Counted from the stretch's first letter, positions 14,801-46,470 are shown. The stretch: DNA of 64,000 nt from Nitrosopumilus sp. (GCA_965249555.1 OZ252243.1:1-64000); one strand, 5' to 3'. Translations and numbers: made by a program. Notes: generated by a model from the sequence alone, not told the origin.

Positions 14801-17800
14801 CAACCAGATCCTCAGATGAAACGCTTGTCTGTGGAATGTCGTTAGTTGATACGGCATGATATGTGTAGGATTTTCCGGGAGTTACTGTAGTATCAGTGTA
14901 GAATAATTCAGTGACAGTTACCAGGGAAACATTATCTCTAAACAGAACGTATCCTGTGGCACCCTCCACTGTACTCCATGTAATCTCAATGCTTGTTTCA
15001 GTGATTGTTCCTACGACAAGTGTAGGAGGTGCTATGGTTGTAGATATTTCCAAATTCTCAGAGTTGTCACTTGTCTGGGGAATGTCGTTAGTTGATGTGG
15101 CATGATAAGTGTAGGATGTTGCAGGAGTCAGACCAGTTTCAGTGTAGGATGTATTGCCGGTAGTTGTTATGAGGGTATCACCTCTATACAATTTGTATTC
15201 ATTGGCACCATCCACTGCACCCCATGTAATCTCAATGCTTGTCGGAGTGATTGTTCCTGCTCCAAGTGTGGGAGGTGTTATGGTTGTAGCTGCAATCAGA
15301 TTCTCAGATGAAACGCTTGTCTGTGGAATGTCGTTAGTTGATACGGCATGATATGTGTAGGATGTTCCGGGAGTTACTGTAGTATCAGTGTAGAATAATT
15401 CAGTGGTGGTAGTTGTCACTGAGTTGCCATCTCTAAACAGCTCGTATCCTGTGGCACCATTTACTGCAGTCCATGTAATCTCAATGCTTGTCGGAGTGAT
15501 TGTTCCTAGTACAAGTTCAGGAGGTGCTATGGTTGTAGATATTTCCAGATCCTCAGAGTTGTCACTTGTCTGGGGAATGTCGTTAGTTGATGTGGCATGA
15601 TAAGTGTAGGATGTTGCAGGAGTCAGACCAGTTTCAGTGTAGGATGTATTGCCGGTAGTTGTTATGAGGGTATCACCTCTATACAATTTGTATTCATTGG
15701 CACCATCCACTGCACCCCATGTAATCTCAATGCTTGTCGGAGTGATTGCTCCTGCTCCAAGTGTGGGAGGTGTTATGGTTGTAGCTGCAATCAGATTCTC
15801 AGATGAAACGCTTGTCTGTGGAATGTCGTTAGTTGATACGGCATGATATGTGTAGGATGTTCCGGGAGTTACTGTAGTATCAGTGTAGAATAATTCAGTG
15901 GTGGTAGTTGTCACTGAGTTGCCATCTCTAAACAGCTCGTATCCTGTGGCACCATTTACTGTACTCCATGTAATCTCAATGCTTGTTTCAGTGATTGTTC
16001 CTAGTACAAGTTCAGGAGGTGCTATGGTTGTAGATATTTCCAGATCCTCAGAGTTGTCACTTGTCTGGGGAATGTCGTTAGTTGATACGGCATGATATGT
16101 GTAGGATGTTGCAGGAGTCAAGGTCTCATCAGTGTATGATGTATTGCTGGTAGTTGCTATAGAAATGCCATCTCTAAACAGCTCGTATCCTGTGGCACCA
16201 TCCACTGCACCCCATGTAATCTCAATGCTTGTCGGAGTGATTGTTCCTGCTCCAAGTGTGGGAGGTGTTATGGTTGTAGCTGCAATCAGATTCTCAGATG
16301 AAACGCTTGTCTGTGGAATGTCGTTAGTTGATACGGCATGATATGTGTAGGATGTTCCGGGAGTTACTGTAGTATCAGTGTAGAATAATTCAGTGGTGGT
16401 AGTTGTCACTGAGTTGCCATCTCTAAACAGCTCGTATCCTGTGGCACCCTCCACTGTACTCCATGTAATCTCAATGCTTGTTTCAGTGATTGTTCCTAGT
16501 ACAAGTTCAGGAGGTGCTATGGTTGTAGATATTTCCAGATCAGCAGAGTTGTCACTTGTCTGGGGAATGTCGTTAGTTGATGTCTGATCTATCTGATCAA
16601 ATAATAAGATCAAGAGTTCTAAGTTGTCACTTGTCTGGGGAATGTCGTTAGTTGATGTGGCATGATATGTGTAGGATTTTCCGGGAACCACGTTAGTATC
16701 AGAATATGATGTACCAATGACATATCCCAGGGATTCGTCATCTCTGAACAGCTCGTATACTATGGCACCCTCCACTGCACCCCATGTAATCTCAATGCTT
16801 GTTTCAGTGATTGCTCCTGCGACAAGTGTGGGAGGTGCTATGGTTGTAGATATTTCCAAATTCTCAGAGTCCTCACTTGTCCCGGCAGAATTAGTTGCTG
16901 TGGCATGATATGTGTAGGATGTTGTAGGAGTTAGACCAGTTTCAGTGTATGATGTATCGCCGGTAGTTGCTATAGAAATGCCATCTCTAAACAGCTCGTA
17001 TCCTGTGGCACCATCCACTATATCCCATGTAATCTCAATGCTTGTCGGAGTGATTGCTCCTGCTCCAAGTACAGGAGGTACTATGATTGTAGCTACAATC
17101 AAATTCTCAGATGGAACGCTTGTCTGTGGAATGTCGTTAGTTGATGTGGCATGATATGTGTAGGATGTTGCAGGAGTCAGGCCAGTGTCAGTGTATGATG
17201 TATCGCCGGTAGTTGTTATGAGGGTATCATCTCTATACAATTTGTATCCTGTGGCACCATCCACTATATCCCATGTAATCTCAATGCTTGTCGGAGTGAT
17301 TGCTCCTGCGACAAGTACAGGAGGTGTTATGGTTGTAACTGCAACCAGATCCTCAGATGGAACGCTTGACCGTGAAATGTCGTTAGTTGATGTGGCATGA
17401 TATGTGTAGGATTTTCCGGGAACCACGTTAGTATCAGAATATGATGTACCAATGACATATCCCAGGGATTCGTCATCTCTGAACAGCTCGTATACTATGG
17501 CACCCTCCACTGTACCCCATGTAATCTCAATGCTTGTCGGAGTGATTGCTCCTGCGACAAGTGTAGGAGGTGCTATGGTTGTAGATATTTCCAAATTCTC
17601 AGAGTTGTCACTTGTCTGGGGAATGTCGTTAGTTGATGTGGCATGATAAGTGTAGGATGTTGCAGGAGTCAGACCAGTTTCAGTGTAGGATGTATTGCCG
17701 GTAGTTGTTATGAGGGTATCACCTCTATACAATTTGTATTCATTGGCACCATCCACTGCACCCCATGTAATCTCAATGCTTGTCGGAGTGATTGCTCCTG

Positions 17801-20800
17801 CTCCAAGTGTGGGAGGTGTTATGGTTGTAGCTGCAATCAAATTCTCAGATGGAACGCTTGTCTGTGGAATGTCGTTAGTTGATACGGCATGATATGTGTA
17901 GGATGTTCCGGGAGTTACTGTAGTATCAGTGTAGAATAATTCAGTGACAGGTCCCAGGGAAGCATTATCTCTAAACAGCTCGTATCCTGTGGCACCATTT
18001 ACTGTACTCCATGTAATCTCAATGCTTGTTTCAGTGATTGTTCCTAGTACAAGTTCAGGAGGTGCTATGGTTGTAGATATTTCCAGATCCTCAGAGTTGT
18101 CACTTGTCTGGGGAATGCCGCTATCTGTTACGACACCACCTAAGACATAATAATAATATGCGTAGGATGTGGCATGATATGTGTAGGATGTTCCGGGAGT
18201 TACTGTAGTATCAGTGTAGAATAATTCAGTGACAGGTCCCAGGGAAACATTATCTCTAAACAGCTCGTATCCTGTGGCACCCTCCACTGTACTCCATGTA
18301 ATCTCAATGCTTGTCGGAGTGATTGTTCCTGCTCCAAGTTCAGGAGGTGCTGGGTTTGTAAATACTAAATAAAATGCAGAAGGGTTACTCATCCCGGCAG
18401 CATTTGTTGTTGTAAGGAGATAATTGTACTGTATACCAGAAGTCAGGCCGGTATCAGTGAAAAACAATATATCGCCTGTTGCCACTATTTCATAAGCACC
18501 GTCATCAACAAATCTGTACAAATTGTAACTGTCGGCATTCTCCACTGCAACCCAGAAAAATGTTACAGTTGTGTCAGTGATTTCTGATATTTGGAAGTCT
18601 GGTTCTACAGGTACAGTAATTACGTGTTTGCTGGCAATTACCTCACCATCATATGAGAGGGTTATGACATCGTTATAACCATGCCCGACTGGTAATAGAT
18701 ATAATATTTCACCCAACTCATCATTTGCAATGCTGACAGTTCTCTGTTCAGCACCAAATCCAATCGTAAAATCACCAGCTTTGTATGCGGAAAATGATAC
18801 CTGTGCGGCATAAGTGGGTATTCCAATTTGAATGCCAAAAGAGTGTAATTGTACTGGATCCAGATAACCTAATCTCAAGTCATAAGGGGGCATTCCAATT
18901 TGAATGTCAAAAGAGCCTTCCTTGATTGCAGGTATCTCAGTTTGCGTGTCAGGTGATGCAGTCGAAGTTGTAGTTGCAACCACATTGGTAGATGGTTTAC
19001 TGGTCTGGGAAATGTCGTTAGTTGATGTGGCATGATAAGTGTAAATCGTTTCAGGAGTCAAGCCAGTGTCAATGTAGGATAATTTAGGTGCAAGAAAGAG
19101 AAAAAACCAATGTTCAGTTACATAACTAGGAGTCAAGCCAGTGTCAATGTAGGATAATTCAGGGGTAGTTGTCACAGAAACGCCATCTCTAAACAGCTCG
19201 TATCTTGTGATACCATCCACTGCAGCCCATGTAATCTCAATGCTTGTCGGAGTGATTGCTCTTACTCCAAGTGCGGGAGGTGCTATGAGTGTAGATACTG
19301 CAAACTCTGCAGAAGGAGCACTTGTCACATAAGAATTTTTTGCTATAACGGTATACTTGTACTCTGTATCATGTTCCAAGCGAGGATCAGTGTATGATGT
19401 ACCAGTGATATGGCGGTAGGAGCCAGGAGTGTCGTCGGTAGTTGCTATAGAAATGCCATCTCTAAACAGCTCGTATCCTGTGGCACCCTCCACTATATCC
19501 CATGTAATCCTAATGAGTGCCGGAGTGATTGCTCTTGCTCCAAGTGTGGGAGGTGTTATGGTTGTAGCTGCAACCAGATCCTCAGATGGAACGCTTGTCT
19601 GTGGAATGTCGTTAGTTGATACGGCATGATATGTGTAGGATGTTCCGGGAGTTACTGTAGTATCAGAATATGATGTACCAGTGACAGTTCCCAGGGAAGC
19701 ATCATCTCTGAATAGCTCGTATCCTGTGGCACCCTCCACTGTACTCCATGTAATCTCAATGCTTGTTTCAGTGATTGCTCCTGCTCCAAGTGTGGGAGGT
19801 GCTATGGTTGTAACTGCAACCAGATCCTCAGATGGAACGCTTGTCTCAGCAGCGTTAGTTGATGTGGCATGATATGTGTAGGATGTTGCAGGAGTTACTA
19901 TATTATCAGAATATGATGTACCAGTGACAGTTCCCAGGGAAGCATCATCTCTGAATAGCTCGTATCCTGTGGCACCAGTTGATGCAGTCCATTCAATCAC
20001 TATACTTGTCGGAGTGATTTCTCCAGGTCTAAGTGTAGGAGGTACTATGGTTGTAACTGCAACTAGATCCTCAGAGTTGTCACTTGTCTGCAATGCACGG
20101 TTATCTGATGTGGCATGATATGTGTAGGATGTTCCGGGAACCACGTCATTATCAGTGTGGGATAAACCATGAAGAGTTCTTATGAGAATGTCATCTCTAT
20201 ACAACTTGTAGAGTAAGGCACCTGGTTGTGCATCCCATGAAATCACTATACTTGTCGAAGTGATTTCTCCTGTCCTAAGTGCAGGTGGGGCAGGTAGTGT
20301 ATGTGCCCTAGCTGTAGTTACAGCCCGATTGGCAGAGTCCTCACTTGTCCCGGCAGAATTAGTTGCTGTGGCATGATATGTGTAGGATGATGCCGAAGTC
20401 AGGCCCTCATCAGTGTAGGATAATTCAGTGGTAGTTGCTATGAGGGTATCACCTCTATACAATTTGTATCCTGTGGCACCAGTCACTGCATCCCATGCAA
20501 TCTCAATGCTTGTCGAAGTGATTTCTCCTGATCTAAGTGCAGGTGCGGCAGGCGGAGTTGCTGCATCAGTCCTTGCAGTAACCTCGTTAGATGAACCACT
20601 TGTCCCGGCAGTATTTGTTGCCGTAATGGTATACTTGTAATCTGTATCAGCAGACAGGCCAGTATCTGTGGCAGTCAATATATCGCCTGTTGCCACTATT
20701 ACATTATCATCGCCATCAACAATTCTGGTTAAAGTGTAACTGTCGGCATTATCCACTGCAGTCCACCAAAGTGTTATAGTTGTATCAGTAGCTGTTAATA

Positions 20801-21164: not shown

Positions 21165-21445
21165 ACTATGGTGAAAATAATTTGTGGTTATAATAAATTT
21201 ACAGGTTGATTTTTTAAGCTTGTAATTTGGCAATCGTGAGTAATTTGGGCATATCTCAGATAGGGAGATGTGTAAAGTTTTGTAAAATGAGATTCAGGGG
21301 ATCTCATAATTTTGATCGTATTTTTTACAGTGGAATGCCAATGCCTAAAAATGGTGATTGGGCACCATACCCCCATACACCTGTTCTTGTCATCTGCTTT
21401 AATCAAATCTTGTTCTGCGGGTGCTTTGCCAAAGTCTCGTGTTTC

Positions 21446-21492
21446 TTGGTGAAATTGGTGAAATTGGTGAAATTGGTGAAATTGGTGAAATT
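21446..21492. repeat. 9-bp tandem repeat (TTGGTGAAA)x5
   Basis: Read directly; lies upstream of giant gene 1 and just past the stop of the ATPase pseudogene. Confidence 0.9.
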
Positions 21493-22795: not shown

Positions 22796-23199
22796 TCATA
22801 AAAATTATATTTAAATTAATCATTACTAATATTCACAGCTTTGAAGAATTCAATCTAATTTTCAGGTCCTCGATAACCCGACAGAACTCGGGCATAAGAA
22901 AAATTCCATCTAAAATTCGGAGAAAACTCACATTCCTAGCTGATGATAACCTCATACTGATATTTTAAACTAGATGCAGACTGGAGATATAGAAATCCAA
23001 AGGCGATTCCTGAGCTCTCTTGCGAGTCTCCTAGCCAGCATTACACCGACGGAACCGTACAATTATTACTGATTCCTATTTTTTAAAGGTTGGGTATTCT
23101 AGGGATTGGTAACTTAACGGGAGCTGTTTTCTCGTGAAAAGTGTCGGGAGCTGACGTTTTGTATATCTTTAACATTATCTAGAGATAATATGGATCTTC

Positions 23200-23366
23200 T
23201 CTCCCATACGAAATCATCTCCAATTACTGAGGACACCAAGTGTGCTTTGTACAATCAGGACATCTTTGATCTGCTTCTTTTACTTGTGTCAGTTCATGAT
23301 TTTGTGTATAATACACTTTCAGAGTTAGCATGTGCCCGGATTGTTGCAAGCATCCAGTCTTGCAGC
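23200..23366 (-). mobile_element. 3' end fragment of a second IS110-family element (B), replacing the IS5 C-terminus
   Basis: Homologous to 57113..57295 (TCTCCCATACGAAATC...GATTGTTGCAAGCATCC..TCTTGCAGC). Confidence 0.7.
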
Positions 23367-23777
23367 AAGTCCAAGATAGTTCTCGCAGTTCTTTTCGTAT
23401 CTGATTGCAGTTCTTCTAAACCCGCATTTGAGCCATGCAAAGAATCTCTCTACAACAAATCTTGTCTTATTGTAATTGTCTTGAAGATTCTTCGAGATGA
23501 TGAATTTGGAATTATTCCTGTAGGGAATGCAGCAGCCAATTCCATGACGTCTGAGATAATTTCTGATGTATGCAGCATCATAACCCTTGTCTGCATGCGC
23601 TGATACAGTTTCTTTTATGAAACCATCATCAAGAAAATCTGAAATGTTTTCTAGCACATCAATGAATCTGATACTATCATGGACATTTGCAGGACTGCAC
23701 ACAATTGAAATTGGCAATCCTGTTTTATCCACTGCAACATGTACTTTTGTGCCTAAAATCTTTTGCAGATCAATCCT

Positions 23778-23883
23778 TCCTTGTCTGTGTGCAGATTTGA
23801 TTAGTTGGGATAGATCCAATTGTTGTAATTATTACTGATGATAAAATCCTTGTCTGTGTGCAGATTTGATTAGTTGGGATAGA
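23778..23883. repeat. 37-bp exact duplication flanking a unique 32-bp insert inside the IS5 transposase
   Basis: TCCTTGTCTGTGTGCAGATTTGATTAGTTGGGATAGA at 23778 and 23847; the insert at 23815-23846 introduces stop codons. Confidence 0.92.
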
Positions 23884-26077: not shown

Positions 26078-26127
26078 AATGATTATTTTAAAAAATATTT
26101 AATCATGTATATGTGTATTTTTTTTGA

Positions 26128-36300: not shown

Positions 36301-39300
36301 TGATGCTGCAGTTGTAGATGCTGCAAACTTTGCAGAAGGAGCACTTGGCCCGGCAGAATTTGTTGCCGTAATTATATAATTGTAATCTGCATCAACAATC
36401 AGGCCAGTATCTGTGGCAGTCAATATATCGCCGGATATCACTGTTACATCATTAATGCCATCAACAATTCTGGTCAGGGTGTAACTGTCGGCATTATCCA
36501 CTTTAACCCATGATAACGTTATGCTTGTTTCAGTGACTTCTCCCAGTACAAGTACGGGAGTAGCAGGTGGTGCTATGGTTGTAACTGCAACCAGATCCTC
36601 AGATGGAACGCTTGTCCCGGCAGCGTTAGTTGATGTGGCATGATATGTGTAGGATGTTCCGGGAGTTACCATATTATCAGTGTAGGATAATTCAGTGACA
36701 GGTCCCAGGGAAACATCATCTCTGAATAGCTCGTATTCTGTGACACCATCCACTGCACCCCATGAAATCACAACACTTGTCGGAGTGATTTCTCCTTTAA
36801 CAAGTACGGGTGGGGCAGGTCCAGTAGTTACAGATACACTGCCAACTTGTGCACCATCAAATGAGAGGGTGACAGGGTTGTCATAATTATACCCGACTGG
36901 CACTATAGTAGTTGATGTTTCACCCAACTCATCATTTGCAATGCTGACAGTTCTCTGATCAGTACCATATCCAATTATGAAATTGCCGGATTTTAATGGC
37001 ACAAAGGATACGGATGCGTCATCAGCGCCAGCTATGACACCAAAAGAGTCCGATACAATTGGAGGTATCGCAATTGGCGTACCAGGTGTTGCAGTCGAAC
37101 GTGTAGATACAACCAGATTGGCAGATGGTTCACTTGTCTGGGAAATGTCGTTAGTTGATGTGGCATGATAAATGTAAATCGTTTCAGGAGTCAAGCCAGT
37201 GTCAGTGTAGGATAATGCAGTGACAGTTTCCAAGAAAGCATCATCTCTGAATAGCTCGTATCCTGTGGCACCAGTTGGTGCAGTCCATTCAATCACAATG
37301 CTTGTTTCAGTGATTGCTCCTGCGACAAGTTCAGGAGGTGCTATGGTTGTAGATATTTCCAGATCAGCAGAGTTGTCACTTGTCTGGGGAATGTCGTTAG
37401 TTGATATGGCATGATAAGTGTAGGATGTTCCGGGAGTTACTATATTATCAGAATATGATGTACCAGTGACAGGTCCCAGGGAAGCATCATCTCTGAATAG
37501 CTCGTATCCTGTGGCACCCTCCACTATATCCCATGCAATCACTATACTTGTCGGAGTGATTGCTCCCGGTCTAAGTGTAGGTGGTGCTATGGTTGTAACT
37601 GCAACCAGATCCTCAGATGGAACGCTTGTCTCGGCAGCGTTAGTTGATGTGGCATGATATGTGTAGGATGTTCCGGGAGTTACTATATTATCAGAATATG
37701 ATGTACCAGTGACAGTTCCCAAGGAAGCATCATCTCTGAATAGCTCGTATCCTGTGGCACCAGTTGATGCAGTCCATTCAATCACTATACTTGTCGGAGT
37801 GATTGCACCAGGTCTAAGTGTAGGAGGTGCTATGGTTGTAACTGCAATCAAATCCTCAGAGTTGTCACTTGCCTGCAAAGCACGGTTAGTTGATGTGGCA
37901 TGATATGTGTAGGATGTGTAAGGATCCAAGCCAGTGTCAGTGTAGGATAAACCAAAAATAGCTCTTATGAGACTGTCATCTCTATACAACTTGTAGAAGT
38001 GGGCATTTGGTTGTGCATCCCATGAAATCACTATACTTGTCGAATTGATTGCTCCTTTCACAAGTACGGGTGGGGCAGGTAGTGGATGTGCCCTAGCTGT
38101 AGTTGCAGCCCGATTGGCAGAGTCCTCACTTGTCCCAGCAGAATTAGTTGCTGTGGCATGATATGTGTAGGATGTTGCAGGAGTCAAGGTCTCATCAGTG
38201 TAGAATAATTCAGTGGTAGTTGTCACTGAGTTGCCATCTCTAAACAGCTCGTATCCTGTGGCACCAGTCACTATATCCCATGCAATCACTATGCTTGTCG
38301 AAGTGATTTCTCCTGTCCTAAGTGCAGGTGCGGCAGGTGGAGTTGCTGCATCAGTCCTTGCAGCAACCTCGGCAGAACTATCACTTGTCCCGACAGAATT
38401 TGTTGCCGTAATGGTATACTTGTAATCTGTATCAGGTTCCAAGTTCTCATCAGTGGTAGTCAATACGTTGGTTTCTAATAGCACCGTTACAGCAGGATTG
38501 TTTCCAAGGGTTCTGCTCAGGGTGTAGCTGTCGGCATTCTCCACTGCAACCCATGAAAGTGATATAGTTGTATCAGTAGTTGCTCCTGCAGAAAGTATGG
38601 GTGCTGCAGGTGCAGTTGGTTCAGGTCCTACTGTTACAGTTTCAGTGATTGTTGTGGTTTGTCCATTGCTGTCAGTTACAGTATAAGTTACGACATACTC
38701 TCCAGAAGCGTTGACATTTACTGTTTCACCGCCAACTATACTGGATGCAATTCCTGAGATATCAAATGCATTGTTAATTACACCTTGGGTGTATGTTTCG
38801 CCAAATGGTACTGCAGTGGAATAGTCAACTGTGTTGCCATCAACATCAAAGGTTGGCGGTGTGGTATCAGATACGGTAATTACAATTGATTTTTGGTCTG
38901 GTGTGTTATTTGCCGCATCATCTGGTGCATCATACAATACGGTGTATACTCCTACAACACGGGTGTCAGGTGTATTACCAGAGACTGTTACTGTTTCAGA
39001 GTAATTTGGGTCATTATCAGTTACAGTGGCGCCTTGTTCTGTGTAGGTGTTGGTTGCAGTTAATTCAATTCTTTGGGTGGATCCTGTTGGTGTGATAGAT
39101 GGCGGTGTGTTATCTGTAACTGTAACTGTTCTAGTTACTGTAACTGCAGAGTTTCCAGCCGCATCATCTACATCAAAGGTAACAGTGTAAGTATTAGCTA
39201 TACTGGTATCAACTGTATCTCCAACAACTACCTTACCTGTGATATCTCCATCAGTGTCATCAGTTGCAGAATAGGTGAATGGCACGTATGTTTCTCCAAG

Positions 39301-42300
39301 TTCAACGGAGAATGAATCCTTATTGACTGTGATAGATGGTGCTGTATCATCAGGTGCAGGTCCGGTAGTTACAGATTCCCTTGCAACCTCGACACCGCCG
39401 GCAATTGAAATGATAACATTGCCAGTATAATCATACCCGACTGTTTCTGTGTGAATGTTTGGGGTGGCTGCATCATCTATTGGAAAGTTAATGGTAGAAC
39501 CATTCTCAAATTCAATTACAAAATTACCGGTGTGTGAGGATGTGAAGGTTATAGTTACTTTATCTCCGTCAGTATGAGGGGCACTGGTGAGAGTGTATGT
39601 GGAAGAATCAGTACTTGCAGTAACCTCGTTGGAAGGTTCACTTGATCCAACGGAATTTGTAGCTATAAGGGTATACTTGTACTCTGTGTCTGCAGTCAGG
39701 TTCTCATCAGTGAAAGTCGTTGCATCGCCGGATAACGTTTCAGTACCAGCAGCACTGCCTGCAAGGGTTCTGCTCAGGGTGTAACTGTTGGCATTACCCA
39801 CTGTACCCCATGAAAGTGATATGGTTGTATCAGTGGTAGAGTCTACAGAAAGCACAGGTATTTCAGGTACAGTTGGTGCAACAGTTGGTGCTGCAAGTGT
39901 AGTTACAGACACGACATCAGAGGCGGCACTGTCTCCAGCTATAGACACTGCCCTTATGGAATAGGTGTAAGTTGTTTCAGGTTCCAAGGTATCATCATAT
40001 GAGGTTCCAGTGACTGCTATCTCAGTTGGTCCTGTGCCACCTGTTCTGCTCAGCGTATAACCAGTTGCACCAGTCTGCGCATCCCATGAGAACACTACAC
40101 TGTTATGAGTAATATCTCCTTTGACAAGTGTCGGGGTGCCAGGTATAGTTGATACTGATTCCCTTGCATATTCATGTCCACCAAATGAGATGACAATCTC
40201 ACCAATAAAGCCATGACCAGTTGATAGTGTAATATTTTCGGTGGCATTACCTACTTCATCAGTATTAATAGTCCAGAGCGTGCTCGGACCACCTACTGCT
40301 TGAATCAGAAATGTGCCTGCTCTTAATGGTACAAAGGATACAGTTACATCTCCATCATCACGTGCAGTAGCGATAAATGTGCCTGCCTTGATTGCCAGAG
40401 TCCTTGCAGACTGGCTTGCAACATCCTTACTGTCAAATGAGAGGGTTACATCACCATCAAAGTCATACCCAACTGTTATTGTGCTCTCTTTTACTGCTGA
40501 ATCTGATACATCCTCAGCTGAGACAGCAACTGTATCACTTGACTCACTAGATGTAATCGTAAATGTGCCTTCCTTTAAGGCTGTAAATGTCACAAGTAAT
40601 TTGTCTGCATTTGCCGTATGGGTAACCTCAAAAGAGCCTGTCTTTATTGCCGGCGTTTCAACTGGTGCTGCAGTTGTAGATGCTGCAAACTCTGCAGAAG
40701 GATCACTTGTACCGGCAGTATTTGTTGCCACAATGACATACTTGTAATTAGTTGAAGGAGTCAGGTTCCTATCTGTGGCAGACAATATATCGCCTGATTC
40801 CACCACTACATTATCACCGCCATCAACAATTCTGGTCAGAGTGTAAGTTTCGGCATTAGCCACTGCAACCCATGCGAGCTCTATGGTATTATGAGTATTA
40901 GATGCAATACCAAGTGCGGGAGTAGCAGGTGGAGCAGTTGCTGCAATTACTTTGTATATTCTGGTTTTACCAACAGCTGGGTTTGTACCATCAGTTGAGG
41001 AATAAGTGATAGTGTAATCGCCTACTGTGGTAACATCAACAGTTCCGGATGTATTAATTTCAGAGCCATCATCAGTTGAGACTCCTTCAAGAAGTTTTGG
41101 TGCAGGTGAGTTTAGTTCAAGAGTGATTTCCTCTGGAGTTACTGTGATTACTGGTGGAGTAGTATCAATTGATGCTGTTCCAGTTGTAGTTGCAGTAACC
41201 GTATTAGAACGAACACTTTCCCCAAAAGTATTTGTTGCTGTAACGAAATACTTGTACTCTGTACCAGAAAGCAGACTATCATCATCGGTACTGAGTCCGC
41301 TGGTGCCTGACAACACTATTACATCATTACCGCCATCAACAATTCTGGTTAAAGTGTAACTGTCGGCATTACCCACTGCAGTCCATGAAAGGAATATAAT
41401 TGCATCAAGAGTTATGTCTACAGAAAGTACGGGTGCGGCTGGTGGTGTAGTTAATGCTGTTCCAGTTGAAGTTGCAGAAACCACGTTAGAACTGGTAATT
41501 ACCCCAGCACCATCAAATGCTGTGACATGATATCTGTAGGTCGTTCCAGGAAACACAGTATCAATGTGTGTTGTCCCTGCAATATTTCCTCCTTGCGGAC
41601 GGCCATCTCTATACACCTTATAGTATGTGGCATCAGTCACTGAAGTCCATGAAAGTGCTATACTTGTATCAGTAATTGCTCCTACAGAAATTACAAATGG
41701 ATCTTCTACTGTTACAGTTTCAGTGATGATAGCAGATAATCCATTGTTGTCAGTTACGGTATAAGTTACGACATACTCTCCAGAAGCGTTGACATTTACT
41801 GTTTCACCGCCAACTATACTGGATGCAATTCCTGAGATATCAAATGCATTGTTAATTACACCTTGGGTGTATGTTCCGCCAAATGGTACTGTAGTGGAAT
41901 AGTCAACTGTGTTACCATCAACATCAAAGGTTGGCGGTGTGGTATCAACTACAGAAATTACAATTGATTGTTGGTCTGGTGTGTTGCCTGCCGCATCATC
42001 TGGTGCATCATACAATACGGTGTAAACTCCTATACTACTGGTGTCAGGTGTATCACCAGAGACTGCTACTGTTCTAGGGTAGGCCGGGTCATTATCAGTT
42101 ACGGTGCCGCCTTGTTCTGTGTAGGTGTCAGTTGCAGTTAATTCAATTCTTTGGGTGGATCCTGCTGGTGTGATAACTGGTGGTGTAGTATCTGTAACTG
42201 TAACTGTTCTAGTTACTGTTTCTGCAGGGTTTCCAGCTGCATCATTTACATCAAAGGTAACATCATAGGTTCCAGCTGTATCGGTATCAGCTGGATATCC

Positions 42301-45300
42301 AGCAACAGCTACCTCACCGGTGATAATCCCGTCAGTATTATCATTTGCAGTAAAGGTGAATAGCTCGTACGTTCCTCCAAGCTCAACTGAAAATGATTCT
42401 TCATTGACTGTGATAGATGGTGCTGTAACATCAGCAGTTACTGTAACTGTTCTAGTTACTGTTTCTGCAGGGTTTCCAGCCGCATCATCCACATCAAAGG
42501 TGACATCATATGCTCCAACAGTACCGGTATCAACTGTATCTCCGCCAACAGTTACACCACTTGAGATATCTCCGTCAATATTATCAGTTGCAGTAAAGGT
42601 GAATGCTGTGTATGTTTCTCCAAGCTCGATGGAGAATGATTCTTCATTGACTGTGATAGATGGTGCTATATCATCAGGTGCAGTTCCAGTTGTAGTTACA
42701 GACTCAACATTAGAACTGGCACTTGCCGCAAGACCATTGAATGCTATGACATGATATGCGTACTCTGTTCCAGGAGTCAGACCAGTATCCGCGAATGATG
42801 TCACTCCGATATCTCTTCCTTGTGCAATGCCATCCCTATACACATTATAGTGTGTAGCACCAGTCACTGCACCCCATGAAAGTGCTATACTTGTGTCAGT
42901 AATTGCTCCTACAGAAAGTACGGGTGCGGCTAGTGGTGCAACCAAGGTCGTTACATGTATCCTTGCAACTTCTGTACCGCCAAATGAAACGACAACGTCA
43001 TCATCATAACCATAACCTATGGGGATATTGGGTAAGACTTGACTTTTATTTATGTGAGTATCCTCGGCATCGAAAGAATTGGTTCTGCCGTCATATTCAA
43101 ATGTGTAGCTGCCGACTTGTAGCGGTGTAAAGGTAATGTGTATCTTATCTCCTGCAGTATTCAGTTGATAGCTAAGAGAGCCTGCCTCGATTGCAGTCTG
43201 GTCAAGTGTGTAAGTTGGTGCGTTAGGAACTAATACAGATGCTGCAGTTGTAGTTGCAGCAACCTCGGCAGAACTATCACTTGTCTCGACAGAATTTGTT
43301 GCCGTAATGGTATACTTGTAATCTGTATCAGGTTCCAAGTTCTCATCAGTGTATGATATAGTATTGCCCCCAGAGACCGGTATCTCAGCTGGCCCTGCGC
43401 CACCTGTTCTGCTCAGAGTGTAACTGTCGGCATTCTCCACTGCACCCCATGAAAGTGTTACAGTTGTATCAGTGGTAGAGTCTACAGAAAGCACAGGTGT
43501 TTCAGGTGGAACTGGTGTTGCAGCTGTAGTTACATCCAGATCCTCAGATGGAACGCCTGTATACGTATCAGAATGTGATGTAATAGTAAAAGTGTAATCG
43601 GTTTCAGCAGTTAAATTATCAACAGTATGCGTCAAAGCACTGGTGCGTATTACCAATGTATTACCGTTGAACAATGAATATTCAGTTGCACCAGTTGGTG
43701 CAGTCCATGTAATCACTATACTTGTATCAGTAATTTCTCCTGCAGAAAGTACAGATGGTGCTATGGTTGTAACTGCAACCAGATCCACAGATGCGTCACT
43801 TGTCCCGGCAGCGTTAGTTGATGTGGCATGATATGTGTAGGATGTTCCGGGAGTTACTGCAGTATCAGAATATGATGTACCTGTGACAGTTCCCAGGGAA
43901 GCATCATCTCTGAATAGCTCGTATCCTGTGGCACCAGTCACTGCATCCCATGAAATCACAACACTTGTCGGAGTGATTTCTCCCAGTACAAGTACGGGTG
44001 GGGCAGGTAGAGTCGTTACAGATACACTGCCAATCACCTCACCACCAAATGAGAGGGTGACTATACCACTATAATCAGACTCAACTGGTAATGTAGTAGT
44101 TGATTTCACACCTAATACAGTATCTGCAATGTTGACATTAATGCTCTGATCAGTACTATATCCAATCGTGAAATCGCCGGATTTTAATGGTGTAAAGGAT
44201 GCAGATGCTGTTCCATCATCAACAGCTATGACACTAAAAGAGCCTGATGCAATTGGAGGTATTTCAGCTGGCGTATCAGGTGATGCAATCGAACTTGTAG
44301 CTACAATCAGATTGGCAGATCTGGCGAGGAGATTTGGAAAGGCATCAGCTGCGAGGACAGAAAAAATGTAAACTGTTTCAGGAGTCAGGTCGGTAAAAGT
44401 ATGGGATGTATTACCGACAACTACTACTGTGGAACTATCAGATCTAACCAACGCATAGCCGACGGTACCCTCCACTGCAGTCCATGTAAGCTTAATGCTT
44501 GTCGGAGTGATTTCTCCTGCGACAAGTTCAATTGGTGCTGCAGGTGTAGTTACAGTCAAATCCTCAGAATCTTCACTTGTCCCGGCAGAATTTGTCGCCG
44601 TAATTATATAATTGTAATTTGTTCCAGGTTCCAAGGAATCATCAGTGGCAGTAAATACATCATCTGATACCACTACATGATTAGGACCGTCCTCAACAAC
44701 TCTGGTTAAAGTGTAACTTGTGGCACTCTTCACTGAATTCCATGAGAGCGTTATGCTTGTGTCAGTGACTGCTCCTGGTACAAGTGTGGGAGGTACAGGT
44801 AGAGTCGTTACAGATAACGCTGATGATAGTGAGCTTATCACAAAATCATGTGTACGTGATTCACCAGTAAAAGAATAAGTTGTTCCAGGAGATAAACCAG
44901 TAACAGTATGCGTCGTACCAGTAACTGTTTCTATTTGTATTCCATTTCGGTACAATAAATAGTCAAAAACAGAACTGTGTGCAGACCATGTAATCACTAC
45001 ACTTGTATCAGTGATTGTTCCTGCGACAAGTATAGGCGGTCCAGGTTCTGTAGTTCTAGCCAAATCATGAGATGGATCACTTGTCCCAGCAGCACTAGTT
45101 GCTGTGACATGATATGTGTACAGGGTTCCACGAACCAAGTTCTTATCAACGTATGATGTAAAGTCACCAGATCTTATGCGAACGTCATCTCTAAACAGCT
45201 CGTATCCTGTGGCACCAAATACTTCATTCCATCGAAGCTCAATGCTTGTCGGAGTGATATCTCCTTCTGTAAGTGTAGGAGGTGCAGGTAGAGTCGCTAC

Positions 45301-46371
45301 AGGTAACGCTGATGATAATGAGCTTTCCGTGGAATCACTTGCACGTGATTTAGCAGTAAAAGAATAAGATGTTCCAGTAGATAAACCAGTAACAGTATGC
45401 GTCGTACCAGTAACTGTTTCTATTAGTGAACCATCTTGGAACAACAAATACTCAGCAGCACCAGTTTGTGATTCCCATGTAATTATTACACTTGTATCAG
45501 TAACTGTTCCTGCGACAAGTGTAGGCGGTTCAGGTTCTGTAGTTATAGCCAAAACATCAGATGAATCACTTATCCCAGCAGCATTAGTTGCTGTGGCATG
45601 ATACCTGTATATTGTTCCAGGAACCAAGTTCCTATCAACGTATGATGTAAAGTCACCAGATCTTATGGATTCGCCATTTCTAAACAGCTCGTATCCTGTG
45701 GCACTAAATACTTCATTCCATCGAAGCTCAATGCTTGTCTTAGTGATTGTTCTTGACTCAAGTGTAGGAGGTGCAGGCGGTTCAGTTGGCGCACTTGTAG
45801 ATACAGTCAAAACATCAGATGAATCACTTGTCCCAGCAGCACTAGTTGCTGTGGCATGATACCTGTATGTTGTTGCAGGAGTCAGACCAGTTTCAGTGTA
45901 GGATGTATCGCCACCAGTTTTTATGAGATTGCCATCTCTAAACAGCTTGTATTCTGTGGCACCAGTCACTGCATCCCATTCAATCGTTATACTTGTCGGA
46001 GTAATTGTTCCTGACTCAAGTGTAGGAGGTCCATGTGGAGTAGTTATAGTCAATATACGAGGAAGAGACAGACCGTCGTCATATGCGACGATTCTAAACT
46101 CGTAAGCTGTGTTAGGTGTCAGTCCAGTAGCAGTATACGTTGTACCATGTATTTGACCACCAGTGTCAAGTGGTCCTATGTCGACATCGTCTTGGTACAA
46201 AAAATAAAAATTACCAGTTGCAGTCCAAGTAAGCTTAACGGAGTTGTAAGTGGTGTCTGTTGCTGTAAATACAGGAGGGTCAGGTATAGCCTCTGCACTT
46301 GCAAGGAGAAGCGATATGGCAAACAGGGCAACCCCTCCACCCATTAACGCAGAGAATAATACTTTGTTCAT
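27340..46371 (-). CDS. Giant secreted surface protein 2 (6,343 aa): mosaic of Fn3, DUF5011-like and bacterial-Ig-like domains with the same C-terminal domain as protein 1
   Basis: Signal peptide ending FAISLLLASAEA, dozens of diverged Fn3 motifs, D..APSITV..ELG.TY...ATD..DGDI repeats and a shared C-terminus. Confidence 0.93.
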   Translation of the reverse strand: MNKVLFSALMGGGVALFAISLLLASAEAIPDPPVFTATDTTYNSVKLTWTATGNFYFLYQDDVDIGPLDTGGQIHGTTYTATGLTPNTAYEFRIVAYDDGLSLPRILTITTPHGPPTLESGTITPTSITIEWDAVTGATEYKLFRDGNLIKTGGDTSYTETGLTPATTYRYHATATSAAGTSDSSDVLTVSTSAPTEPPAPPTLESRTITKTSIELRWNEVFSATGYELFRNGESIRSGDFTSYVDRNLVPGTIYRYHATATNAAGISDSSDVLAITTEPEPPTLVAGTVTDTSVIITWESQTGAAEYLLFQDGSLIETVTGTTHTVTGLSTGTSYSFTAKSRASDSTESSLSSALPVATLPAPPTLTEGDITPTSIELRWNEVFGATGYELFRDDVRIRSGDFTSYVDKNLVRGTLYTYHVTATSAAGTSDPSHDLARTTEPGPPILVAGTITDTSVVITWSAHSSVFDYLLYRNGIQIETVTGTTHTVTGLSPGTTYSFTGESRTHDFVISSLSSALSVTTLPVPPTLVPGAVTDTSITLSWNSVKSATSYTLTRVVEDGPNHVVVSDDVFTATDDSLEPGTNYNYIITATNSAGTSEDSEDLTVTTPAAPIELVAGEITPTSIKLTWTAVEGTVGYALVRSDSSTVVVVGNTSHTFTDLTPETVYIFSVLAADAFPNLLARSANLIVATSSIASPDTPAEIPPIASGSFSVIAVDDGTASASFTPLKSGDFTIGYSTDQSINVNIADTVLGVKSTTTLPVESDYSGIVTLSFGGEVIGSVSVTTLPAPPVLVLGEITPTSVVISWDAVTGATGYELFRDDASLGTVTGTSYSDTAVTPGTSYTYHATSTNAAGTSDASVDLVAVTTIAPSVLSAGEITDTSIVITWTAPTGATEYSLFNGNTLVIRTSALTHTVDNLTAETDYTFTITSHSDTYTGVPSEDLDVTTAATPVPPETPVLSVDSTTDTTVTLSWGAVENADSYTLSRTGGAGPAEIPVSGGNTISYTDENLEPDTDYKYTITATNSVETSDSSAEVAATTTAASVLVPNAPTYTLDQTAIEAGSLSYQLNTAGDKIHITFTPLQVGSYTFEYDGRTNSFDAEDTHINKSQVLPNIPIGYGYDDDVVVSFGGTEVARIHVTTLVAPLAAPVLSVGAITDTSIALSWGAVTGATHYNVYRDGIAQGRDIGVTSFADTGLTPGTEYAYHVIAFNGLAASASSNVESVTTTGTAPDDIAPSITVNEESFSIELGETYTAFTFTATDNIDGDISSGVTVGGDTVDTGTVGAYDVTFDVDDAAGNPAETVTRTVTVTADVTAPSITVNEESFSVELGGTYELFTFTANDNTDGIITGEVAVAGYPADTDTAGTYDVTFDVNDAAGNPAETVTRTVTVTDTTPPVITPAGSTQRIELTATDTYTEQGGTVTDNDPAYPRTVAVSGDTPDTSSIGVYTVLYDAPDDAAGNTPDQQSIVISVVDTTPPTFDVDGNTVDYSTTVPFGGTYTQGVINNAFDISGIASSIVGGETVNVNASGEYVVTYTVTDNNGLSAIITETVTVEDPFVISVGAITDTSIALSWTSVTDATYYKVYRDGRPQGGNIAGTTHIDTVFPGTTYRYHVTAFDGAGVITSSNVVSATSTGTALTTPPAAPVLSVDITLDAIIFLSWTAVGNADSYTLTRIVDGGNDVIVLSGTSGLSTDDDSLLSGTEYKYFVTATNTFGESVRSNTVTATTTGTASIDTTPPVITVTPEEITLELNSPAPKLLEGVSTDDGSEINTSGTVDVTTVGDYTITYSSTDGTNPAVGKTRIYKVIAATAPPATPALGIASNTHNTIELAWVAVANAETYTLTRIVDGGDNVVVESGDILSATDRNLTPSTNYKYVIVATNTAGTSDPSAEFAASTTAAPVETPAIKTGSFEVTHTANADKLLVTFTALKEGTFTITSSESSDTVAVSAEDVSDSAVKESTITVGYDFDGDVTLSFDSKDVASQSARTLAIKAGTFIATARDDGDVTVSFVPLRAGTFLIQAVGGPSTLWTINTDEVGNATENITLSTGHGFIGEIVISFGGHEYARESVSTIPGTPTLVKGDITHNSVVFSWDAQTGATGYTLSRTGGTGPTEIAVTGTSYDDTLEPETTYTYSIRAVSIAGDSAASDVVSVTTLAAPTVAPTVPEIPVLSVDSTTDTTISLSWGTVGNANSYTLSRTLAGSAAGTETLSGDATTFTDENLTADTEYKYTLIATNSVGSSEPSNEVTASTDSSTYTLTSAPHTDGDKVTITFTSSHTGNFVIEFENGSTINFPIDDAATPNIHTETVGYDYTGNVIISIAGGVEVARESVTTGPAPDDTAPSITVNKDSFSVELGETYVPFTYSATDDTDGDITGKVVVGDTVDTSIANTYTVTFDVDDAAGNSAVTVTRTVTVTDNTPPSITPTGSTQRIELTATNTYTEQGATVTDNDPNYSETVTVSGNTPDTRVVGVYTVLYDAPDDAANNTPDQKSIVITVSDTTPPTFDVDGNTVDYSTAVPFGETYTQGVINNAFDISGIASSIVGGETVNVNASGEYVVTYTVTDSNGQTTTITETVTVGPEPTAPAAPILSAGATTDTTISLSWVAVENADSYTLSRTLGNNPAVTVLLETNVLTTTDENLEPDTDYKYTITATNSVGTSDSSAEVAARTDAATPPAAPALRTGEITSTSIVIAWDIVTGATGYELFRDGNSVTTTTELFYTDETLTPATSYTYHATATNSAGTSEDSANRAATTARAHPLPAPPVLVKGAINSTSIVISWDAQPNAHFYKLYRDDSLIRAIFGLSYTDTGLDPYTSYTYHATSTNRALQASDNSEDLIAVTTIAPPTLRPGAITPTSIVIEWTASTGATGYELFRDDASLGTVTGTSYSDNIVTPGTSYTYHATSTNAAETSVPSEDLVAVTTIAPPTLRPGAITPTSIVIAWDIVEGATGYELFRDDASLGPVTGTSYSDNIVTPGTSYTYHAISTNDIPQTSDNSADLEISTTIAPPELVAGAITETSIVIEWTAPTGATGYELFRDDAFLETVTALSYTDTGLTPETIYIYHATSTNDISQTSEPSANLVVSTRSTATPGTPIAIPPIVSDSFGVIAGADDASVSFVPLKSGNFIIGYGTDQRTVSIANDELGETSTTIVPVGYNYDNPVTLSFDGAQVGSVSVTTGPAPPVLVKGEITPTSVVISWGAVDGVTEYELFRDDVSLGPVTELSYTDNMVTPGTSYTYHATSTNAAGTSVPSEDLVAVTTIAPPATPVLVLGEVTETSITLSWVKVDNADSYTLTRIVDGINDVTVISGDILTATDTGLIVDADYNYIITATNSAGPSAPSAKFAASTTAASTDTVLAAPTLRAVEITESSIEIEWSKVTGAVLYSLFRNGVFIEYAFDTSYTDTGLTPETIYIYHATSSNAASQQSGKSADLVVSTRSTATPGTPIEIPAIESGSFGVIAGADDASVSFVPLKSGNFIIGYGTDQRTVSIANDELGETSTTIVPVGYNYDNPVTLSFGGVEVGSVSITTPPAPDTTAPDTTAPDTTAPSITVNEDSFSLELGETYTAFTYSATDNTDGDITSGVVVGGDTVDIGTVGTYDVTFDVDDAAGNHADTVTRTVTVTDTTAPAVPEITTSPATVNTPSFTIDGTAEAGTTVALFNGATPAGTATADGSGNFSFTVTLTDGENSFTVTASDGANTSGPSSALVITLDTEKPVITVTGSSETIELTQTNTYTIPDATVEDNDPAYSETVAVTGNTPDTSSIGEYTVLYDAPADAAGNTPDQKSITITVSDTTAPTLTVERLANNFIRLSWENVPSVEGAYIIHLDTGGSQSTLAEVFTDSHIISLSTDLELANAADRIGVTGDTGTQGTGSSFTILYEGGTVWADIPAKNAVASEPPVLVRGAVTDTSIVISWDIVDGATGYELFRDDVSIATTTTELSHTDDELTPGKSYTYHATATNSAGPSDASKDLTAATTIAPPVLVKGAVTDTTVIITWTAIHGAADYLLYQDNSATPIATVTGTTHTVTGLTAGTDYSFAAESRSSDSVKSSPSSALPVLTVPAAPALGTGAITDTSIVITWDIVEGATGYKLFRDDVSIATTTTELSHTDTTVTPGKFYTYHATATNSAGSSEDSDDLDVATTLAAPVLELGEITGTSVTITWTAIHGAADYFLHLEGLRPITVIGTTHTYINLTPGTTYSFTVESYNSDRTVKSQPSVPLSVTTSPATPTLRITDTAHNTITLSWDRVGADSYTLTRIVAGGANVLVPTTDALTATDTGLTAETPYRYVITATNAAGTSGSSNEVTASTAAAPAPATPTLVAGATTDTTITLSWGAVDYAKTYTLTRTVGIETTEIPDITGTSYTDGNLEPATDYNYIITATNSAGTSTPSAEFAVSTTAAPTDTTIPETPTLLLGAVTPTSITLSWNSVNNAETYTLTRVVDSINDVTVASGDILTATDENLIADTEYNYIITSTTPEGKTSAPSAEFAVTISSAAQSFDVAADGDEISVFFVPTISGEFTIKYGDQSIPVTIAAGDEGSASTTIVSVGYNFNRTVALFFGSDAIDSIPINTEPAPPTIRATTITPTSILIVWEESTGAQEYKLYKNNIPIATTPDVSYTDDSLEPETIYIYHAESHNDISQTSDTSANLVVSTSSTASPGTPIEIPAIQEPFAIETRAEDVLISFVPLKSGDFIIGYGTDQSITVSITNDELGETSSTLVPVGYNYNGDITLSFDGAQVDSLSITTSPAPPSLRVGAVTPTSITIEWDAVDGAIGYLIYDDPTVGHIRLNFPTELSFYIPDLTPETSYTYYVRSVNPTGIGDGIQGSEFAELTTRTADAPTVPATPVLSVDSTTDTTVSLSWGTVGNANSYTLTRTLAGSAAGTEALSGDATTFTDENLTADTEYKYTLIATNSVGPSEPSNEVTASTDSHTYTLTSAPHTDGDKVTITFTSSHTGNFVIEFENGSTINFRIGDASIPNIHIETVGYDYTGNVIILIAGGAEVARESVTTGSEPAPGFATLVLGTTTHDTITLSWEAVDNVDSYTLTRVVDGSANVVVFSGNALTAIDENLDADTEYKYVITATNTAGTSTSLEFSARTSTQADTPAIEANSFEVTNTANADTLLVKFTALKEGTFTITSSESSDTVAVSAEDVSGSVEKEETITVGFVFDDIVTLSLDGETVASKSARTLAIRAGSFDTTANADGDVEVSFVPLRAGTFVIQAVGGPSTNWTINTDEVGGIIPVITLLTGHGFIGDVVISFGGHEYARESISTVPGTPALTAAIPTHNSVVLSWDAQTSATGYTLSRTGGTGSIEIPVTGTSYADTLEPETAYTYSIRAVALAGEGASSNVVSVTTPAAPATEAFFDVAISLDHVLISFVPLKSGDFIIRYDADQSITVSIADGELNKTSSTVVPVGVNYDGDVSLSFGGVQIGSLSIRTAPAAPVLRVGEITPTSVVIEWDPVDGAIGYLLYTDPNAAHIDSNAITELSFDITGLTPGTSYTYYVRSVNPTGIGDGVQGSAATRLDVTTPTQAIVSDSFVITNPAAADTLLVTFTALQAGTFTITAGTLTDTVDVSAEDVSGAVEKQTTITVGFNFDDTVTLSFDSRQVATTRATTGSNPDAATTPAPPVLGEGTVTHNSIVIEWTAPTGATEYKLYRTDIDVPLTTTTELSYTDNIVTPGTSYTYRAISTNAVGGASAFSEDLIVSTPLAPIELVAGEITPTSIEITWTVVDGTVVYSLIRSDSSQIVGVGGTSHTFTDLTPETVYTYSVVAFDGVPHVLARSADLVTATTAAAPTVPETPTLEFADATLTSITLSWVAVNNAESYTVTRIVAGGNVDVPTTGLTATDTGLTADTPYKYTITATNSAGTSDPSDEFPARTDTAPDIIAPPVPAITTPPATVSSSPITIDGTAEIGSTVELFRGGTSVDTTTVDGSGNFSFTAELTEGANSFTVTASDGPNTSAASPAVVITLDTTPAGGIASVTPGTETPKKKGGDSNEWKTKPTFGKHWNNQAVQLVDDGFVFNGMPLTITNNWHTDFNMTSSIIGDNNTVHIKGYATNGLKSVSLSLGVPEVGLKTNAESHIIVNVNSNYTSPAGYDIADIVHEQKEGLVNQNMTGATISKVKCTSSDTAERCFDVTISFVIMAPLSHEVLAINAVDKQRYSTTTYINEGVEFTGEALLAAATHELKQKHGNQNPFETISLTQQDRRYQVWEDQYGYIWSQNDYGTWLQITRPDMQQRDDSPTSVMTRIHSNFASLVIDEQDRATLIFDSKAIQGTLDESFSYDMPLRLDRVSDLTLLESLSIQEMLAQEMLCDCMIYEDSDLSWND
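35711..35760. repeat. 15-bp in-frame tandem repeat (PDTTA x3)
   Basis: GGTGCTGTTGTATCA x3.3. Confidence 0.9.
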
Positions 46372-46470
46372 ATTGCAACACTTCCATTAGATGACATTAA
46401 TGATGAGGTAGAACCTTCCCCCCCCCCCGCCATTAACGCAGAAAATAATACTTTGTTCAATACTGCAACA
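46341..46470. repeat. ~40-bp duplication of the start region of giant gene 2, flanking a unique 37 bp plus a C11 tract
   Basis: CCATTAACGCAGA(G/A)AATAATACTTTGTTCA(A)TA(T/C)TGCAACA at 46341 and 46430; unique sequence 46381-46417; poly-C 46418-46428. Confidence 0.88.

Follow-up and report, generated by a model that had tools for sequence, protein, structure and literature searches.

In canonical type I-G CRISPR adaptation, as in Geobacter sulfurreducens, spacers are acquired by a Cas4/Cas1 fusion protein together with Cas2. The canonical Cas1-Cas2 complex is loaded with a prespacer of ~36–38 bp. At each border of the first 36-bp repeat, one of the two prespacer 3' ends is linked to the DNA, the two ends going to opposite strands, and gap repair afterwards duplicates the repeat. 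Off-target integration into the genome of E. coli over-producing Cas1-Cas2 was reportedly observed by Nivala, Shipman, and Church in 2018 (Nat Microbiol 3:310), as relayed by the papers citing that work, and such events are said to be able to seed new arrays; one citing preprint reportedly describes the natural evidence as circumstantial and drawn from two species. In vitro, the Cas1-Cas2 of P. furiosus made paired off-target integrations 30 bp apart, a distance equal to its repeat length, at sites that resembled the repeat (PMC6698737). Here we analyze a 64,000-nucleotide (nt) window of Nitrosopumilus sp. (GCA_965249555.1, OZ252243.1:1-64000), which lies at the start of the single contig (2,230,439 bp, 34.4% G+C) of genome G000. 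In this window, five loci carry a short insert between direct copies of the local sequence. We refer to each such unit as a scar (D-I-D), where D is the length of the duplicated target and I the length of the insert. On the evidence of sequence comparison, the scars very probably arose by off-target (non-CRISPR) spacer integration catalyzed by the genome's own type I-G module, Cas4g/Cas1g and Cas2.

Duplicated Targets around Spacer-Sized Inserts

The original prediction, made from the window alone, had named five unrelated loci with this layout, and a direct-repeat search recovered all five. Scar 1 (16547..16658) consists of two 37-nt copies, 16547–16583 and 16622–16658 (100% identical, spacing 75), on either side of a 38-nt insert at 16584–16621. 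In scar 2 (18809..18915), 35-nt copies at 18809 and 18881 with 91% identity (3 differences, spacing 72) enclose a 37-nt insert (18844–18880), and in scar 3 (19053..19163) 36-nt copies at 19053 and 19128 with 97% identity (1 difference, spacing 75) enclose one of 39 nt (19089–19127). Scar 4 (23778..23883) has 37-nt copies at 23778 and 23847 (100%, spacing 69) around a 32-nt insert (23815–23846). The lengths originally proposed for duplication and insert were correct at these four sites and had to be revised at the fifth, atypical scar (46341; 46332..46470). There, the direct-repeat search returned a 39-nt pair at 46332 and 46421 (90% identity, spacing 89); alignment with two single-copy paralogues gave a duplication of ~49–52 nt, imperfect and since diverged, around an insert of ~37 nt, and disclosed a poly-C change and an indel that distinguish the two copies. 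Edges are sharp at the window scars, with the 14 bases flanking each copy unrelated between copies, and what lies between the copies occurs nowhere else in the window.

The whole contig was scanned for direct repeats no more than 600 nt apart, keeping isolated pairs whose outer and inner flanks were unrelated. This yielded 68 isolated sharp-edged pairs, 20 of them at a spacing of 60–79 nt, and the remaining pairs fell mostly at protein-domain periods (~240–290 and 490 nt). The 20 comprise 17 clean two-copy scars, one orphan two-repeat CRISPR mini-array, and two pairs in tandem-repeat regions. The core scars lie at 16547, 18809, 19053, 23778, 95142, 202366, 305871, 643692, 649261, 664919, 1219275, 1268457, 1840225, 1882077, 1948572, 2050963, and 2053378. 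Their D ranges from 28 to 39 nt (mode 35–37), their inserts from 32 to 42 nt, and their period from 64 to 75 nt; D is 35–39 nt in 13/17. Every scar has two copies only, the duplicated sequence is different at every site, and the inserts are mutually unrelated. Exact 35–37-nt repeats are unexpected at random in 2.2 Mb, and the scars are not a product of chance. The lengths form a narrow peak and not the broad continuum that the original prediction had named as a result that would refute it.

Several candidates were set aside. The pairs at 2148068 and 2154815 are located in tandem-repeat regions, and 1134625 is a three-copy tandem with a period of 136–137. A 28+45 unit at 1941796 was picked up by a second finder alone and stands outside the 17. 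The site at 82220–82340, a 34-nt duplication around a 53-nt insert, was left unclassified, the insert exceeding the length of a single spacer; its target has ~30 single-copy paralogues and its insert has matches at 23239 and 2166947, so that both are multi-copy elements. This site and scar 95142 lie just past the window end. The window itself is near the GC-skew minimum (~5 kb), opposite the presumed origin, and contains four core scars and the atypical fifth. Scar targets may be clustered in this contig-start region (1–100000) as well as near the CRISPR array described below.

When the scars of this genome were combined with those of two relatives (G009 and G051), the 31 scars had a D of 35.4 ± 3.3 nt (range 28–41), an insert of 36.5 ± 3.3 nt, and a sum of 71.8 ± 2.2 nt, with D and insert length anticorrelated (r = −0.78). 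Chance identity at a border shifts one or two bases between D and insert, which cannot account for sharp-edged units of 28+42 or 29+45. This suggests that the total of D and I is measured rather than each part, an idea that we offer as a lead.

A Complete Type I-G Module outside the Window

A candidate for the integrase that the original prediction had postulated was found elsewhere in the genome, where Cas1, Cas2, and Cas4 lie beside an array with a 36-nt repeat and spacers of 35–44 nt. Array A (~640.0–643.5 kb) holds 48 copies of the repeat and 47 spacers with a mean length of 38.1 nt; it is transcribed on the minus strand, with the leader between the first repeat and cas2, and its last repeat is degenerate. 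The adjoining Cas4g/Cas1g fusion (561 aa) is stop-free and gave a full-length match of 731 bits against a cut-off of 560, and Cas2 (115 aa) is encoded beside it. On the other side of the array lie Csb1/Cas7g, Csb2, Cas3g, and Cas8g1/Csx17. The type I-G system is complete because Cas4g/Cas1g, Cas3g, Cas8g1/Csx17, Csb1/Cas7g, and Csb2, its signature genes, all score above their NCBIfam cut-offs beside the array. One I-G repeat (36 nt) plus one spacer (~38 nt) equals the scar period. Since the target duplications have the length of the resident repeat and the inserts are spacer-sized, the scars display the geometry of off-target Cas1-Cas2 integration. One scar falls within the leader region, ~150 nt away from the first array-A repeat, and overlaps the end of cas2; two further scars are 5.7 and 21 kb from the array.

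The 3' ends of the array-A spacers are biased, with A at −2 in 31/47 and at −1 in 26/47, and three spacers are duplicated as a block at 640206–640689. An orphan unit at 1884690–1884800, composed of two array-A repeats and one 37-nt spacer, is found at a distance of 2.6 kb from scar 1882077; the array itself is 1.24 Mb away. Relatives of the fusion protein with 47–59% identity occur in metagenome-assembled genomes (MAGs) of Caldilineaceae and Dehalococcoidia, most of them with 36-nt-repeat arrays, and this distribution of sequences suggests that the I-G system has been exchanged across domains. Among related Cas4/Cas1 loci in other genomes, 32/45 had array-like repeat runs, the commonest unit being 36 nt in all but two; the period was 71–74 nt in the 36-nt-unit loci that encode relatives of the fusion.

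A Pfam Cas1 search gave two matches in the genome, both CRISPR-associated. The second, Cas1b, is part of a type I-B locus next to array B (~1609.8–1613.8 kb), which has 61 copies of a 30-nt repeat and 60 spacers of 35–41 nt. This locus (1606000–1618000) is full of insertion sequence (IS) copies: cas4 and cas1b are separated by an IS1595 transposase, and IS66 transposases lie to either side. A scan of open reading frames (ORFs) there gave no I-B cas2. A three-repeat remnant with a different 37-nt repeat lies at 1607942–1608120, 1.7 kb from array B. An array-A spacer (641684–641718) and an array-B spacer (1611836–1611873) have 22 identical bases in common, and both CRISPR systems appear to have sampled one same element. 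The alternative integrase that had been raised in the original prediction, a casposase, is contradicted by the absence of a third Cas1-family gene from the genome.

Scars in Relatives with and without the Integrase

The fusion protein was present in 4/60 other genomes sampled from the genus. From each of five relatives we took 400 kb, applied the same finder, and counted pairs with a period of 64–75 nt. The carrier G009, with two Pfam Cas1 genes, had 11 such isolated pairs, all at 68–74 nt and making up its whole set of pairs, while the carrier G051, in which the I-G fusion is the only Cas1, had 3/5 isolated pairs in range. The Pfam Cas1 search found nothing in G002, G007, and G072; the latter two had no isolated pair of this period. 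In total, 14 scars per 0.8 Mb in two carriers compare with 1 per 1.2 Mb in three Cas1-free genomes, in a small, related, and non-random sample. The scars of G051, which has no Cas1 other than the I-G fusion, indicate that the I-G module would be enough on its own.

Scars were also seen near fusion genes in other assemblies. A Nitrosopumilus MAG locus (L049) has a 37+35 scar <1 kb from the fusion gene, and its duplicated sequence is unrelated to the CRISPR repeat of its own locus (at most 17/37 positions alike). A Dehalococcoidia MAG locus that lacks an array has a 38+34 scar, likewise <1 kb from the fusion gene.

These data bear on whether the type I-B module, with Cas1b and 30-nt repeats, made most of the scars in place of I-G. 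The I-B locus with its 61-repeat array is present, D is 28–31 nt in four scars of this genome, and G009 has both systems, with one 30-nt scar 16 kb from its 30-nt array. However, the 13/17 scars with a D of 35–39 nt do not fit a 30-nt ruler, G051 is scarred with the I-G Cas1 only, and in this genome the I-B adaptation genes are interrupted by IS1595 and no cas2 was identified for them among the ORFs scanned. We therefore regard I-B as a very improbable source of most scars; a minority contribution to those with a short D is conceivable, if doubtful.

Ancestral Single-Copy Targets

Empty alleles, which the original prediction had anticipated, were found in relatives and among paralogues as targets in single copy. 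In G007, the region of scar 202366 (75–82% identity, aligned on both sides) contains the target once, with a 69-nt gap. The target of 1268457 occurs once and without the insert in 4/5 relatives searched (G007, G017, G009, and G006), the two query halves overlapping by 31–39 nt. The target of 1219275 is an IS-like element that is single in G007 and in many G009 copies. Single-copy paralogous sites within the genome itself were disclosed for 16547 (34, in further repeat units of that gene), 19053 (11), 23778 (2 IS copies), 46341 (2, at 526889 and 1564779), 1219275 (~18), and 1268457 (2). Empty sites were not obtained for 18809 and several others. No orthologue of the segment that hosts scars 1–3, part of a giant surface-protein gene, was found in five relatives (E ≤ 1e-8), and there is consequently no cross-species empty site for these three. 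The insertions are the derived state.

Contigs from the Logan collection provided a further view of the DNA. Those of two runs span 18717–19028 and 18718–18957 with 0 differences, and so bridge scar 18809. The collection's contigs are short unitigs that break at the duplications of 19053 and 23778, where the scars are neither bridged nor contradicted. Loose contig ends (X4) at 23814 and 23847 match the flanks of the locus from which the 23778 insert was copied, not an empty site.

Assembly or polishing artefacts, absent from the DNA of the organism, would be another way to obtain such units. The genome is a single contig with an unstated assembly method, and the contig-level read evidence covers one scar and perhaps comes from the assembly's own data. 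An artefact, however, would not mimic the length of the resident CRISPR repeat, copy inserts exactly from distant housekeeping genes, or keep a reading frame; nor would it recur in the independent carrier assemblies G009 and G051, against 0, 0, and 1 pair in the Cas1-free genomes. Independent k-mer contigs also bridge 18809 in two runs, although the frame bias and the recurrence in other assemblies weigh more heavily against an artefact than this bridging. Together, these points make an artefactual origin extremely improbable.

Sources of the Inserts

The original prediction had taken the inserts to be generally foreign. Comparison with the whole genome revealed that seven of the 17 core inserts are copies of other single chromosomal loci. 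The insert of scar 23778 is identical at 32/32 positions to 991557–991588 in a Na+/H+ exchanger gene, that of 305871 to 384575–384606 (32/32), that of 1219275 to 965252–965286 (35/35), and that of 2050963 to 601745–601780 inside tRNA-His (36/36). For 1268457 the match is 31/33 (1099184–1099216, ammonium transporter gene), for 1948572 it is 32/33 (2199943–2199975), and for 16547 it is 31/36 (984192–984227, a gene for a helix-turn-helix protein). In the atypical scar 46341, a 28-nt core of the insert is identical (28/28) to hemB at 1544687–1544714. The inserts of 23778 and 16547 and the core of 46341 are thus chromosomal copies whose sources lie outside the window.

An eighth core insert (1840225) has a 31/32 match to a short repeat element with ~22 genome copies, two of which are in the window at 343–374 and 56712–56743. 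Nine of the 17 inserts had no match in their own genome. For those of 18809 and 19053, no source was found in their own genome or in 100 other genomes of the genus (≤3 mismatches), and no exact match in IMG/VR viral contigs; these two may be foreign or old.

No spacer of array A (0/47) or array B (0/60) had a full-length match outside the arrays. This contrast between self-matching inserts in the scars and the lack of self-matching spacers in the arrays is what would be expected if self spacers are lethal in an expressed array and harmless at a silent site. A connection between scar and array was seen in G009, in which the 36-nt insert of a scar at 1872101 equals 35 nt of a 40-nt spacer in its own I-G array together with the adjacent base, the first of the next repeat (1995547–1995582). 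Through this identity, scar inserts are linked with the pool of CRISPR prespacers or with the array: one protospacer was taken up on two occasions, or the insert was copied out of the array.

The positions of the sources were compared with the likely origin of replication. The only Orc1/Cdc6 gene (1008955–1009215) lies at the cumulative GC-skew maximum (~1.015 Mb). Three of eight insert sources in this genome are 17–44 kb from orc1/cdc6, and a fourth is at 90 kb. The only three G009 and G051 inserts that match this genome have their counterparts at 953.4 kb, at 1009.0 kb (inside orc1/cdc6), and at 1016.4 kb. Prespacers may thus be captured at a hot spot close to the origin.

Break repair with template switching is also known to insert sequence templated at distant loci, and a Cas-independent process of this kind, copying ~35 nt from elsewhere and duplicating local sequence, is a rival source of the scars. 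It would fit with the lack of a detectable target motif or protospacer-adjacent motif (PAM) and with the one scar-like pair in Cas1-free G002. Repair of this type, however, gives broad lengths, while the 31 scars sum to 71.8 ± 2.2 nt, the size of an I-G repeat plus spacer; in addition, the Cas1-free relatives sampled have few scars or none, and one insert equals an array spacer. We consider it most unlikely that repair independent of Cas proteins produced the scars.

Insertions in Coding Sequences

Scars 1–3 are located in an uninterrupted giant ORF of 6547 aa (1590..21233, minus strand) with fn3, Bact_surface_Ig-like, and Big_13 domains, whose product is an FN3/Ig-like repeat protein and probably a surface one. 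All three are in frame and stop-free, as the original prediction had held for the giant adhesin. At 16547, TSTNDIPQTSDN is duplicated and LELLILLFDQIDQ is added in a linker between FN3 domains; a neighbouring repeat unit without the insertion reads straight through. At 18809, SF(D/G)IQIG(M/I)P(P/T)Y is duplicated and ~13 residues, DLRLGYLDPVQLH, are added, for 24 residues in all. Scar 19053, inside an FN3-type unit, duplicates LSYIDTGLTP and adds SYVTEHWFFLFLAPK, for 25 residues in all.

The target of scar 23778 is a DDE-transposase (IS) gene, now in pieces, of which one fragment is at 23325..23819 on the minus strand (PF01609, E 1.3e-17). Scar 46341 lies at the start of a second giant ORF, FN3-rich and of 6343 aa (27340..46371, minus strand), and duplicates its 5' end, including the first codons and the upstream region. 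The ATG at 46371 falls within the first copy of the scar and is lost from the upstream copy.

Among all 31 scars, ten are flanked on each side by 30 or more open codons, and in 8/10 of these the total length is divisible by three (6/7 in this genome and 2/3 in G009). The binomial chance of at least 8/10 at one third is ~0.003. The exceptions are 649261, which carries a frameshift signature, and 2070473 of G009, which is near a gene start. Of the other 21 scars, six are divisible by three, near the one-third expectation. The frame bias is the mark of purifying selection on real insertions and by itself is no demonstration of benefit.

This distinction matters for the proposal that in-frame insertions diversify a surface adhesin adaptively with new peptides, which the original prediction had put forward as a possibility. 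Three in-frame events do fall in one 6547-aa FN3/Ig protein, and a fourth event has reshaped the 5' end of the other giant ORF. Yet the giant ORF is the largest target in the genome and encodes a repeat protein tolerant of linker insertions, and in-frame scars also occur in unrelated ORFs (95142, 202366, and 1268457). Out-of-frame scars are found where genes are broken or the DNA is non-coding, which is what a passive filter would produce, and the source of one added peptide is a gene for a cytoplasmic protein, copied out of context. Purifying selection by itself would leave the in-frame pattern, so the proposal is unsupported and we hold adaptive diversification to be improbable.

Other features of the window include a 423-aa AAA ATPase of the AbiEii/AAA_21 type (24806–26077, minus strand), possibly a defence gene, with the IS fragment on one side and the second giant ORF on the other. 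Perfect tandem repeats are present a short way upstream of the giant ORF start (21437–21499; five copies of a 9-nt unit) and at 57490–57559 (four copies of a 14-nt unit).

A Model of Off-Target Integration

The scars share one geometry with a narrow length peak, Cas4g/Cas1g and Cas2 are resident with a matching array, many inserts come from the chromosome itself, empty sites exist, scars accompany the integrase among the relatives sampled, and scars deep in coding sequence tend to keep the frame. Taken together, these observations favor the promiscuous Cas1-type integrase of the original prediction, very probably that of the type I-G module. We infer both the catalysis by Cas4g/Cas1g-Cas2 and the timing of events. 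In the model that we propose, the canonical reaction would take place at ordinary DNA, where two staggered strand transfers ~36 bp apart and subsequent gap filling would produce a ~36-bp target duplication around the prespacer. Many prespacers would be chromosomal DNA of the same cell. Placed in a real array, self spacers of this kind would lead to self-targeting and be lost, whereas off-target sites would give no CRISPR RNA and could persist. Selection would then act as a filter: deep inside a functional gene, a scar would be kept on condition that it preserved the frame and contained no stop, as in the linkers of the giant FN3 protein. The other scars sit in intergenic DNA, at gene ends, in IS copies, or in broken genes.

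Several observations weigh against assigning the scars to the I-G integrase. The duplication length is not constant, four scars of this genome being sharp-edged at a D of 28–31 nt (95142, 664919, 1840225, and 2053378), which is compatible with the second system (type I-B, 30-nt repeat) or with a loose ruler. No shared motif was detected at the target borders: orientation-aware expectation-maximization on 17 sites with two junctions reached 7.1 bits, not significant beside 6.14 ± 0.52 bits (maximum 7.31) in 40 random controls. The common PAM looked for at the self sources did not emerge, as TTN was upstream in only 3/7, and none of the 17 inserts of this genome equals an array spacer. Cas1-free G002 had 1/8 isolated pairs in range, its others being at periods of 54 and 102. 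Moreover, the carrier segments were centred on cas loci, 400 kb was taken per relative, and the genomes are kin, so that the contrast between carriers and Cas1-free genomes is indicative and not a clean test. Finally, both runs that bridge 18809 come from one study, possibly the assembly's own source, and the bridging therefore excludes an assembler-specific artefact only.

Where earlier cases relied on over-produced or purified Cas1-Cas2, these genomes offer a fixed, datable set of native events. The scars allow the preferences of naive self-acquisition to be read, which autoimmunity erases from real arrays, and provide natural substrates with which to study target measurement by the I-G integrase. 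They also put a concrete cost on the adaptation module, in broken genes and remodelled gene starts, and represent a previously unlisted source of protein insertions of ~24 residues. A broader proposal, on which we find the case evenly balanced, is that I-G off-target integration acts as a recurrent natural mutagen in carrier Nitrosopumilus. It would generate ~72-bp insertions, including in-frame ones of 23–25 residues, would leave in the scars a fossil record of self-capture that arrays cannot keep, and would involve a capture hot spot near orc1/cdc6 and a ruler that fixes the sum at ~72 nt.

Comparison with Known Systems

Casposons carry multi-kb cargo with terminal inverted repeats and generate duplications of ~14–15 bp. 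The scars resemble them in the combination of a Cas1-family integrase with a target-site duplication, but have 28–39-nt duplications, unrelated inserts of 32–42 nt, and no casposase gene in the genome, and a casposon was rejected. The footprint of an IS or transposon, a conserved element within a duplication of <15 bp, was likewise discarded, since the duplications are 28–39 nt, every insert is different, and seven come from single-copy loci. A bona fide CRISPR array, with at least three copies of the same repeat and a leader, does not correspond to two copies per site of a sequence that is different each time.

Orphan or mini CRISPR arrays have the same two-copy repeat-spacer-repeat layout, and the unit at 1884690 is a true example. 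In contrast to these, the duplicated sequence in the scars is the local target and is unrelated to the CRISPR repeat, a comparison made at L049. For annotation, this means that an isolated repeat-spacer-repeat unit need not be a CRISPR array. Canonical type I-G adaptation matches the present case in its gene set and in the geometry of a 36-nt repeat and a ~36–38-nt spacer. It differs in that it operates at the leader-repeat junction only, on PAM-flanked foreign DNA, whereas the scars lie elsewhere and the seven self sources have no consistent PAM.

The closest parallel is the off-target integration reported for E. coli and seen in P. furiosus, which shares with the scars a spacer-sized insert, a repeat-length duplication outside the array, and a resident integrase. 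Those cases concern over-produced or purified proteins and deep sequencing, while the events described here are fixed in wild genomes, 17 in one and others in its relatives. The scars further differ from those cases in having many inserts of self DNA and several in-frame coding insertions. No repeat-like target motif was detected here, in contrast to the repeat-like sites given for P. furiosus (PMC6698737). In a literature search that covered subscription journals poorly, we found no description of a wild genome with many such scars, with preserved self inserts, or with in-frame protein insertions. The reaction itself is known from experiments; its scale in nature, the self-derived inserts, and the insertions into coding sequences look new.

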